A DNA stretch of 64,000 nucleotides from Escherichia coli. Its GTDB lineage: Bacteria; Pseudomonadota; Gammaproteobacteria; Enterobacterales; Enterobacteriaceae. Positions 34,809-38,889 of the stretch are shown piece by piece (position 1 is the stretch's first letter; each line of letters opens with the position of its first letter). Where the stretch lies: the NCBI RefSeq assembly GCF_013315695.1, contig NZ_CP054353.1; one strand, given 5' to 3'. A program made the position numbers and the translations under genes. Under the pieces are notes generated by a model. It had not been told where the DNA came from and did not search any database. It saw only the letters and a program-made list of their open reading frames with translations.

Positions 34809-37421
34809 TTAAGCCAGTGCTTTGGTTATCTTCTCGTACAGATCGCCAGAGAGATTTTCCAGCCCTTTCAACTGCTCCAGCGCCGCGCGCATTTTCTCCT
34901 GACGTTTGGCATCGTAACGTTTCAGGCGAATCAGCGGCTCAATCAGGCGCGATGCCACCTGCGGGTTACGGCTGTTGAGGTCGGTAAGCATTTCCACAAG
35001 GAACTGATAACCGCTGCCATCTTCGGCATGGAACGCTGCCGGGTTGCTGCCCGCAAACGCGCCAATCAACGAACGAATGCGGTTCGGGTTGCTCATGGTA
35101 AATGAGCGATGCTGCAACAGACCGCGCACCGTCTCCAGCACATTCGCCGCCGGGCTGGTGGCTTGCAGGATAAACCATTTATCCATCACCAGACCGTCCA
35201 GATGCCACTTATCGTCGTATTCCTGCATCAGCGCATCACGGCATGGCAGTTGTGCGGCAACCGCCGCAGAAAGCGCCGCCAGCGCATCGGTCATATTGTT
35301 CGCTTCGTGGAACTGCTTGCTCACCAGCACGTCAGCCAGATGCGTTTCACCAAAAGCAAGGAAGCGCAGGCAGGCATTACGCAGAGTGCGTTTCGCAATA
35401 TCTTCATGCTCAACACGGTACTCGCTCTGGTAATTCGCGTTGTAAATAGCCAGCAGCTCATCCGCCAGTTCAGTCGCCAGAGTACGAGTGAGTGCTTCGC
35501 GTACTTCGGCAATAGCAATCGGGTCGATGATATCGAACAGTTCAGCCATTTCATTGACAGAAGGCAGCGTCAGGATTTCTGCCGCCAGCGCCGGATCAAT
35601 CTTCTCATCGAGCAGCACCGCGCGGAAAGCGTCAGCCACATGCACCGGCAGAGACAGCGGCTGCCCTTGCTGATGACGGGCGACGTTTAGCTTGATGTAG
35701 GTTGCCAGCAGGCTTTGCGCCGCATCCCAACGGGAGAAATCATTACGCGCATGACGCATCAGGAAGGTCAGTTGCTGATCGCTCCACTTATATTCCAGTT
35801 TCACTGGCGCAGAGAATTCGCACAGCAGCGCAGGCACCGGCTGGAAGTAGACATTATCAAAGACAAAGGTCTGTTCCGCCTGAGTGACGTTTAGCACGGA
35901 ATTCACCGGATGACCGCCTTTCTGCAACGGGATCACTTTGCCTTCGTTATCATACAATTCGATTGCAAACGGAATATGCAGCGGTTGTTTTTCTGCCTGA
36001 TCCGGCGTAGCTGGCGTGCGCTGGCTGATGGTCAGGGTGTACTGCTCGGTTTCCGGATTATAGTCGTCTTTGACGGTCACAACCGGCGTACCGGACTGGC
36101 TGTACCAACGGCGGAAATGAGAGAGATCGACATTCGACGCATCTTCCATCGCCTGAACAAAGTCGTCGCAGGTTGCCGCGCTGCCATCATGGCGCTCGAA
36201 ATAGAGCTGCATCCCTTTCTGGAAGTTTTCTTCGCCCAGCAGGGTGTGGATCATGCGAATCACTTCCGCGCCCTTCTCGTAAACGGTCAGGGTGTAGAAG
36301 TTGTTCATCTCAATGACCATATCCGGGCGGATCGGGTGCGCCATCGGGCTGGCGTCTTCCGCAAACTGCAATCCGCGCATGGTGCGCACGTTGTTGATAC
36401 GGTTTACCGCGCGAGAACCAAGGTCAGAGCTGAACTCCTGATCGCGGAAGACGGTTAAACCTTCTTTCAGGCTGAGCTGGAACCAGTCGCGGCAGGTCAC
36501 TCGGTTACCGGTCCAGTTATGGAAATATTCATGGCCGATAACGCGTTCAATATCGAGGTAATCTTTGTCGGTGGCGGTATCGGTGCGGGCCAGCACATAT
36601 TTGGAGTTAAAGATATTCAGCCCCTTATTCTCCATTGCGCCCATATTGAAGAAATCCACCGCGACGATCATATAGATGTCGAGGTCATACTCCAGGCCGA
36701 AGCGCTCTTCATCCCATTTCATGGAGTTTTTCAGCGAGGTCATCGCCCACGGCGCACGATCAAGGTTGCCGCGAACGACGTACAGCTCCAGCGCAACTTC
36801 GCGACCAGAACGCGTGGTGAAGGTGTCGCGCAGCACGTCGAAGTCGCCTGCCACCAGCGCAAACAAGTAGCACGGTTTAGGGAACGGGTCCTGCCACTGT
36901 ACCCAGTGACGTCCGTTTTCCAGTTCGCCTTGCGCAACGCGGTTACCGTTGGAAAGCAGGAAGGGATATTGGGTTTTATCGGCAATAATTTTGGTGGTAA
37001 AACGCGCCAGCACGTCCGGGCGGTCGAGATAATACGTAATATGGCGGAAACCTTCGGCTTCACACTGGGTGCAAAGCGCATCGCCTGACTGATAAAGCCC
37101 TTCCAGCGCGGTATTCGTCGCCGGGCTAATTTCATTAACGATCTTAAGCGTAAAACGCTCCGGCAAATTACTGATGACCAGTGCGCCCTCTTCTTCTTTC
37201 CAGGCGGTCCACGGCTCATCATTAATATGAACAGAAACCAGTTTAAGATCTTCGCCATCAAGACGAAGCGGAGCATCTGATGCACCATGACGGACAGCCT
37301 GGCTGACCGCGGTAACGACCGTCTTTTGCGCGTCCAGGTCAAAGGTCAAGTCAATATCAGTAATCTGGTAATCCGGCGCACGATAATCGTGACGGTATTT
37401 GGCTTGTGGCTGTTGAGTCAT
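34809..37421 (-). CDS. pepN: Aminopeptidase N
   Basis: 870 aa M1 metallopeptidase (HEYFHNWTGNRVT zinc motif). Confidence 0.95.
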   Translation of the reverse strand: MTQQPQAKYRHDYRAPDYQITDIDLTFDLDAQKTVVTAVSQAVRHGASDAPLRLDGEDLKLVSVHINDEPWTAWKEEEGALVISNLPERFTLKIVNEISPATNTALEGLYQSGDALCTQCEAEGFRHITYYLDRPDVLARFTTKIIADKTQYPFLLSNGNRVAQGELENGRHWVQWQDPFPKPCYLFALVAGDFDVLRDTFTTRSGREVALELYVVRGNLDRAPWAMTSLKNSMKWDEERFGLEYDLDIYMIVAVDFFNMGAMENKGLNIFNSKYVLARTDTATDKDYLDIERVIGHEYFHNWTGNRVTCRDWFQLSLKEGLTVFRDQEFSSDLGSRAVNRINNVRTMRGLQFAEDASPMAHPIRPDMVIEMNNFYTLTVYEKGAEVIRMIHTLLGEENFQKGMQLYFERHDGSAATCDDFVQAMEDASNVDLSHFRRWYSQSGTPVVTVKDDYNPETEQYTLTISQRTPATPDQAEKQPLHIPFAIELYDNEGKVIPLQKGGHPVNSVLNVTQAEQTFVFDNVYFQPVPALLCEFSAPVKLEYKWSDQQLTFLMRHARNDFSRWDAAQSLLATYIKLNVARHQQGQPLSLPVHVADAFRAVLLDEKIDPALAAEILTLPSVNEMAELFDIIDPIAIAEVREALTRTLATELADELLAIYNANYQSEYRVEHEDIAKRTLRNACLRFLAFGETHLADVLVSKQFHEANNMTDALAALSAAVAAQLPCRDALMQEYDDKWHLDGLVMDKWFILQATSPAANVLETVRGLLQHRSFTMSNPNRIRSLIGAFAGSNPAAFHAEDGSGYQFLVEMLTDLNSRNPQVASRLIEPLIRLKRYDAKRQEKMRAALEQLKGLENLSGDLYEKITKALA

Positions 37422-37639
37422 AAATAACCTTTAGCATCTTTTATAGAGTCTGGTGTTCAGTCTATTCCTGTTGCGTAAATCGCGCTATGCAGAATCTTCA
37501 TCTTTTCAGGTACAAACGCCTTTATTGCTACATTTTTATAACATACACCGCGTAATGCCATCGACCAGAAAGGTGGCATATGGTGTGATCGGGGTTCAAT
37601 AAATTGCGAAACAAGGTATACTCCAGCAGTTCCTGAAGA

Positions 37640-37657
37640 TGTTTATTGTACTAAACG
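37640..37657. promoter_or_regulatory. NadR operator (NAD box) upstream of pncB
   Basis: tgtttattgtactaaaca = perfect TGTTTA-N6-TAAACA inverted repeat 30 bp upstream of pncB ATG. Confidence 0.8.
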
Positions 37658-37686
37658 CTCCTGTACGAGGACGCTACTGCGCACCT

Positions 37687-38889
37687 ATGACACAATTCGC
37701 TTCTCCTGTTCTGCACTCGTTGCTGGATACAGATGCTTATAAGTTGCATATGCAGCAAGCCGTGTTTCATCACTATTACGATGTGCATGTCGCGGCGGAG
37801 TTTCGTTGCCGAGGTGACGATCTGCTGGGTATTTATGCCGATGCTATTCGTGAACAGGTTCAGGCGATGCAGCACCTGCGCCTGCAGGATGATGAATATC
37901 AGTGGCTCTCTGCCCTGCCTTTCTTTCAGGCCGACTATCTTAACTGGTTACGCGAGTTCCGCTTTAACCCGGAACAAGTCACCGTATCCAACGATAATGG
38001 CAAGCTGGATATTCGTTTAAGCGGCCCGTGGCGTGAAGTCATCCTCTGGGAAGTTCCTTTGCTGGCGGTTATCAGTGAAATGGTACATCGCTATCGCTCA
38101 CCGCAGACCGACGTTGCGCAAGCCCTCGACACGCTGGAAAGCAAATTAGTCGACTTCTCGGCATTAACCGCCGGTCTTGATATGTCGCGCTTCCATCTGA
38201 TGGATTTTGGCACCCGCCGCCGTTTTTCTCGCGAAGTACAAGAAACCATCGTTAAGCGTCTGCAACAGGAATCCTGGTTCGTGGGCACCAGCAACTATGA
38301 TCTGGCGCGCCGGCTTTCCCTCACGCCGATGGGAACACAGGCACACGAATGGTTCCAGGCGCATCAGCAAATCAGCCCGGATCTAGCCAACAGCCAGCGA
38401 GCTGCACTTGCTGCCTGGCTGGAAGAATATCCCGACCAACTTGGCATTGCATTAACCGACTGCATCACTATGGATGCTTTCCTGCGTGATTTCGGTGTCG
38501 AGTTCGCCAGTCGCTATCAGGGCCTGCGTCATGACTCTGGCGACCCGGTTGAATGGGGTGAAAAAGCCATTGCACATTATGAGAAGCTGGGAATTGATCC
38601 ACAGAGTAAAACGCTGGTTTTCTCTGACAATCTGGATTTACGCAAAGCGGTTGAGCTATACCGCCATTTCTCTTCCCGCGTGCAATTAAGTTTTGGTATT
38701 GGGACTCGCCTGACCTGCGATATCCCCCAGGTAAAACCCCTGAATATTGTCATTAAGTTGGTTGAGTGTAACGGTAAACCGGTGGCGAAACTTTCTGACA
38801 GCCCTGGCAAAACTATCTGCCACGATAAAGCGTTTGTTCGGGCACTGCGCAAAGCATTCGACCTTCCGCATATTAAAAAAGCCAGTTAA
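37687..38889 (+). CDS. pncB: Nicotinate phosphoribosyltransferase
   Basis: 400 aa from internal ATG 37687 ([14 protein letters not shown]...). Confidence 0.92.

Follow-up and report, generated by a model that had tools for sequence, protein, structure and literature searches.

A Conserved, Imperfect NAD Box in the Initially Transcribed Region of Escherichia coli pncB

Introduction

Is the inverted repeat in front of Escherichia coli pncB the site through which NadR represses this gene, and how closely does it follow the NadR consensus? The NadR operator is a palindrome of 18 bp, TGTTTA-N6-TAAACA, and NAD acts as the co-repressor (PMC2330245, PMC2330246). For Salmonella and E. coli, NadR has been named as the repressor of pncB, nadB, nadA, and pnuC, and the promoters tested in the same EMSA study of 2025 were those of nadB and nadA-pnuC only (PMC12421817). 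The pncB gene has been placed in the NadR regulon of several, not all, enterobacterial genomes (PMC5343134). Relief of pncB repression in nadR mutants or under NAD shortage is likewise stated in the introductory literature (PMC12421817, PMC5343134). NadR control of pncB is thus already known biology, and the questions here concerned the exact site, its sequence, its position in the promoter and its history.

The pncB Locus and Its NAD Box

The analyzed stretch of 64,000 nucleotides (64 kb; hereafter the window, to which coordinates refer) is E. coli chromosome with the gene order ssuEADCB–pepN–pncB–asnS–ompF. The pncB gene, encoding a nicotinate phosphoribosyltransferase of 400 aa, is located on the plus strand at 37687–38889 according to the RefSeq start, and pepN is annotated in RefSeq on the minus strand at 34809–37421; a spacer of 265 bp separates the two genes. 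The product of the gene downstream of the repeat contained the Pfam domains NAPRTase_N (E = 3e-38) and NAPRTase (E = 6e-94), which together with the RefSeq annotation confirmed the earlier identification as pncB. A 279-bp pepN–pncB stretch matched many E. coli genomes with 100% identity, its identity reached 99% or more in 5401 of 5425 genomes, and the 50 nt around the box were identical in at least 5408 of these 5425 genomes.

A NAD-box-like sequence of 18 bp, TGTTTATTGTACTAAACG, was found at exactly 37640–37657 (no strand assigned), where an earlier note on this DNA had seen an inverted repeat upstream of pncB. From its last base (37657) to the A of the pncB ATG (37687) the distance is 30 nt, as given in that note. 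The repeat had also been called a perfect TGTTTA-N6-TAAACA, and this part has to be withdrawn: 11 of the 12 specified bases match the consensus, the final base had been misread as A where it is G, and the window contained no perfect match. The mismatch is at the outer end of the right arm (37657), and the complementary arms comprise only GTTTA/TAAAC (5 + 5 bp), the outer T/G pair being non-complementary. The pncB box of E. coli K-12 carries the same G, which indicated that the perfect palindrome was a reading error rather than a strain variant. With up to one mismatch allowed, 37640–37657 was the sole match in the window, and no second NAD box with fewer than four mismatches was found near pncB in 37400–37800.

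The comparison with the nadA and nadB sites that had been proposed for this locus was carried out. In E. coli K-12, the nadA box TGTTTAGCATATAAAACA has one mismatch (L001 496–513), and nadB has the perfect box TGTTTAGTAAATTAAACA and, 74 bp further upstream, another site that deviates at two bases. The pncB box therefore matches the consensus as well as the nadA box does. The nadB and nadA-pnuC operators of E. coli and Salmonella share with the pncB box the consensus, the regulator NadR, co-repression by NAD and a place in the NAD-supply pathway. They differ in detail: the pncB box deviates at the outermost right-arm base, whereas the nadB box is perfect and the nadA box has its own single mismatch, and pncB has a single site in contrast to nadB with its second, weaker box.

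The regulator is present throughout the species, as nadR was detected in 5424 of 5426 complete E. coli genomes. The K-12 NadR protein consists of an HTH_3 domain (residues 7–59) followed by the NMNAT (NMN adenylyltransferase) domain and the AAA_28 kinase domain. No autoregulatory box with three or fewer mismatches was found upstream of E. coli nadR or inside the gene in the stretch examined, which reached ~415 bp upstream. In the E. coli collection, four copies of the pncB leader and three copies of nadR occurred on plasmid-labelled records of "complete" assemblies; these records are probably mislabelled or chimeric replicons.

Conservation of the Box among Enterobacteriaceae

The species sample consisted of the best 80 pncB loci, each from a different Enterobacteriaceae species, with 82–98% protein identity; Yersinia, Serratia, Pectobacterium, and Proteus were outside these best 80 loci. 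The sequence TGTTTA-N6-TAAACG occurred 28–29 nt before the ATG in 54 of the best 80 loci, representing ~20 genera. In the alignment of the 54 box-bearing species with the window, 16 of the 18 box columns were invariant and the other two were conserved in at least 90%. All 12 specified positions, the non-consensus G37657 included, were invariant in the 54 species, and the N6 spacer was nearly always the same. The 14 nt directly 5′ of the box (37626–37639) were highly variable in the same alignment. The four-fold degenerate sites of pncB served as a neutral reference: only 2 of 94 were invariant in these sequences, and on average their identity to the window was 0.44. Judged from these alignments, the pncB box is under strong purifying selection.

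The alignment also bears on the start of the gene. An in-frame ATG at 37639–37641, directly 5′ of the NAD box, was considered as the pncB start and rejected on the grounds of conservation, spacing and the RefSeq annotation, which places the start at 37687. Translation from ATG 37639 lengthens the mechanical ORF from 400 to 416 aa. The A of this ATG was kept in fewer than 20% of the box-bearing species, and the variants with a 28-nt spacing between box and ATG shift it out of frame; ATG 37639 is therefore not a real start. ORF callers could nevertheless mis-annotate the pncB start at this position.

The enterobacterial NadR regulon reconstructed by Gerasimova and Gelfand in 2005 reportedly includes a pncB site. 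The site of the reconstructed regulon (PMC5343134) has the same gene and the same regulator as the box described here, and nothing substantive is different. The presence of the box in 54 of 80 loci agrees with pncB being under NadR in only some enterobacterial genomes (PMC5343134). The consensus match, the conservation, the presence of NadR in the species and the regulon membership in the literature argue for the repression of pncB by NadR, as had been suggested from the repeat itself. We consider it very likely that 37640–37657 is the NadR operator of the E. coli pncB promoter, and we infer that NadR binds at this exact site.

Position of the Box in the Promoter and Proposed Repression

A single pncB TSS in K-12 is listed in Table S1 of Kim et al. 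(2012; PMC3415461), at 989637 (−) of NC_000913.2, with 180 reads and a 5′ UTR of 58 nt. The published 51-mer of this TSS mapped exactly to 37579–37629 of the window; it ends at 37629, and the pncB TSS is thus G37629 on the plus strand. Upstream of it, the −10 hexamer TATACT (37617–37622, plus strand) ends 6 nt before the TSS and was invariant in the box-bearing loci. It was also kept by the 26 box-lacking species, with the exceptions of L068, which has a TATACTT-like change, and L030, in which the −10 was outside the stretch examined. A −35-like TTCAAT (37595–37600, plus strand), placed from the TSS and the −10 hexamer, has 3 of the 6 consensus bases, is separated from the −10 by 16 bp and belongs to a conserved block. 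A consensus promoter scan of 37400–37720 called no sigma-70 promoter.

With the TSS at 37629, the NAD box occupies +12 to +29 with its centre at +20.5. It is thus contained in the 58-nt pncB 5′ leader (37629–37686, plus strand), in the initially transcribed region 3′ of the −10 and off the −35/−10 elements.

A conserved block, TGTGATCGGGGTTCAAT (37584–37600), was observed 5′ of and overlapping the −35 region. It was kept in the deep-branching box-lacking species and replaced in the Klebsiella/Raoultella/Trabulsiella clade. A CRP site in the TGTGATC…TTCAA part of this block (37584–37599) was considered and rejected: its left half is CRP-like, but its right half matches only 2 of 5, and a centre at ~−37.5 fits no standard activator position.

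The location of the pncB box 3′ of the TSS differs from that of the nadA box, which lies at ~−54 to −37 relative to the only listed nadA TSS, itself weakly supported by 5 reads (PMC3415461). This difference was counted against the reading of the pncB box as a NadR operator. It also indicates that operator geometry is not uniform in the regulon.

A familiar case of an inverted repeat just inside the transcribed sequence, at which a dimeric helix-turn-helix repressor hinders RNA polymerase, is lac O1. The centre of lac O1 is at ~+11, whereas that of the pncB NAD box is further downstream at +20.5, and the two systems differ in repressor family and effector.

An operator at +12 to +29 points to interference with the polymerase rather than to occlusion of the −35/−10 elements. 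At high NAD levels, NadR with its co-repressor NAD would bind the inverted repeat through the N-terminal helix-turn-helix domain. The site would abut the downstream edge of the RNA polymerase open complex, and bound NadR would impede open-complex formation or promoter escape, a steric mechanism that we infer from the position of the box. NadR–NAD on the pncB box thus probably blocks RNA polymerase, and the outcome would be less synthesis of nicotinate phosphoribosyltransferase. When NAD falls, NadR would leave and pncB would be transcribed from the TATACT promoter. ATP competes with NAD, and in Salmonella c-di-GMP also releases NadR.

Other Possible Roles of the Conserved 18 bp

The spacer of the box is conserved beyond what a degenerate N6 requires, and this was counted against a pure NadR-operator account. 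It raises the possibility that the 18-mer serves mainly in another DNA-level role, for example as an element of the divergent pepN promoter, its likeness to a NAD box being secondary. The reverse complement of 37645–37650 is TACAAT, a good −10 hexamer, and a minus-strand TSS is listed 7 nt downstream of it at window position 37637 (Table S1; PMC3415461). However, this TSS had 5 reads against 180 for pncB, it would mean a pepN leader of 216 nt, and stronger pepN starts exist at 37528 and nearer to pepN. The best-supported pepN TSS was 37528 with 12 reads, and further pepN starts were at 37452 and 37421, the last of which would be leaderless. Moreover, the 12 consensus positions were conserved as tightly as the nearly invariant spacer, and the box-lacking species have no TACAAT there, yet pepN is still adjacent. 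We regard a main role in the pepN promoter as improbable; the divergent −10 is at most a side effect, which NadR would also occlude.

On the minus strand at 37528–37545, a strongly conserved sequence (CATTTTTATAACAT on the plus strand) was observed, which corresponds to the −10 region TATAAA of the pepN TSS at 37528.

The location of the box within the 58-nt 5′ UTR, next to a conserved leader block with GAGGA, allows a role at the RNA level to be considered, in which the transcribed repeat would form a GUUUA/UAAAC hairpin affecting mRNA stability or translation. The predicted fold speaks against it. The pncB leader showed no significant RNA structure and folded no better than shuffled sequences (MFE −11.7 kcal/mol, z = −0.02), and the box hairpin was absent from both the MFE and the centroid structures. 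The GUUUA/UAAAC stem would be weak, with 5 bp that are A/U-rich, and a candidate UCCU/AGGA stem was broken in most species (CTCCC for CTCCT) with no compensatory change. An action through RNA structure therefore appears still less probable than a role in pepN transcription. Across the whole window, the only Rfam match at the gathering threshold was the PyrD leader (RF02373, 97.9 bits) at 23494–23567 on the minus strand.

The number of sites alone was not significant: 0.17 sites with up to one mismatch were expected per 64-kb window, and 17 of 100 shuffles reached one. Scaled to the 265-bp pepN–pncB spacer, the expectation was ~7e-4. The idea of a functionless, chance near-palindrome in an AT-rich spacer, which the shuffles leave room for, is the least probable of all and is effectively refuted in these comparisons by conservation, as the site occurs in precisely the 265-bp spacer in which NadR would be expected to bind and is invariant across ~20 genera in which the neighbouring bases and synonymous sites have diverged.

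The Leader Block, the Fixed G and the Origin of the Box

Why the box of a NadR operator should keep an off-consensus base in every box-bearing species is suggested by the sequence that it overlaps. A leader block, AAACGCTCC…GAGGA (37653–37671, plus strand), was conserved in the 54 box-bearing and the 26 box-lacking loci. The right arm of the box overlaps with this block, which includes the non-consensus G37657. In the 26 box-lacking loci it was present with small variations in a few, typically as GATGGAAACGCTCCTGTGAGAGGATGC. The GAGGA at 37667–37671 is Shine-Dalgarno-like, and its distance of 15 nt to the ATG is unusually long. AAACG, the last 5 of the 18 box bases, was conserved in the box-lacking species too. 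This indicated that AAACG is held by something besides NadR, and that part of the conservation of the box is not due to NadR.

The presence of the box was mapped on a midpoint-rooted NJ tree of pncB alone, a single gene. The deepest branches lacked the box and comprised Enterobacter sp. Ag1, Mangrovibacter, Atlantibacter, Siccibacter, Franconibacter, Pseudescherichia, and Superficieibacter. The second box-lacking group was the Klebsiella/Raoultella/Trabulsiella clade. The box-bearing taxa made up the rest of the tree, from Kosakonia and Phytobacter through Enterobacter, Citrobacter, and Salmonella to Escherichia. This pattern tentatively fits a single gain of the box beside an older leader block. 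The leader of the Klebsiella clade resembles the deep-branch type, and we tentatively propose that this clade either branched before the gain or was misplaced in the single-gene tree.

Two box-lacking lineages had related sequences further upstream. Enterobacter sp. Ag1 (L076) had no box in the leader and a perfect box, TGTTTAGTACTCTAAACA (1304–1321), 179 nt before the pncB ATG. Its upstream region was rearranged and without pepN, and the box was located just after an unrelated ORF of 406 aa in the place of pepN. This tentatively suggests site turnover, and the operator may have been relocated.

The Klebsiella, Raoultella, and Trabulsiella loci (L048, L052, L053, L055, L058, L059, L061, L033, and L039) had a common TGTTCAATATATTAAACT. 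This sequence has two mismatches to the NAD box and lies ~136–139 nt before the pncB ATG, which is roughly the place of the pepN −10 region in E. coli. The sequence could represent a NadR site of low strength, or no more than the pepN promoter.

We therefore consider, as a possibility that falls a little short of probable, that the pncB box was a lineage-specific acquisition and not ancestral. The left arm and the spacer would have been created beside a GGAAACGCTCC…GAGGA block, which would have supplied most of the right arm and would permanently fix the G. The gain would have taken place in the leader of an ancestor shared by Escherichia, Salmonella, Citrobacter, Enterobacter, Kluyvera, and Kosakonia. 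The box-lacking lineages would then be without NadR control of pncB or would have the box elsewhere, and the perfect box of Enterobacter sp. Ag1, ~150 bp further upstream, would be such a case.

Significance

That NadR controls pncB as part of NAD homeostasis is already known for E. coli and Salmonella, and the present result matters little beyond a correct annotation, in which the box is imperfect and not a perfect palindrome. The additions are modest: the placement of the box at +12 to +29, a wider survey of species, and an explanation of the fixed base, in which an older leader element overlaps the box and would hold the single off-consensus base in place. If the box was a lineage-specific acquisition, the fixed mismatch may tune the repression of salvage to a lower strength than that of de novo synthesis. 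The pncB box would then be a small example of a new operator assembled from existing sequence, and of why some natural operators stay imperfect.
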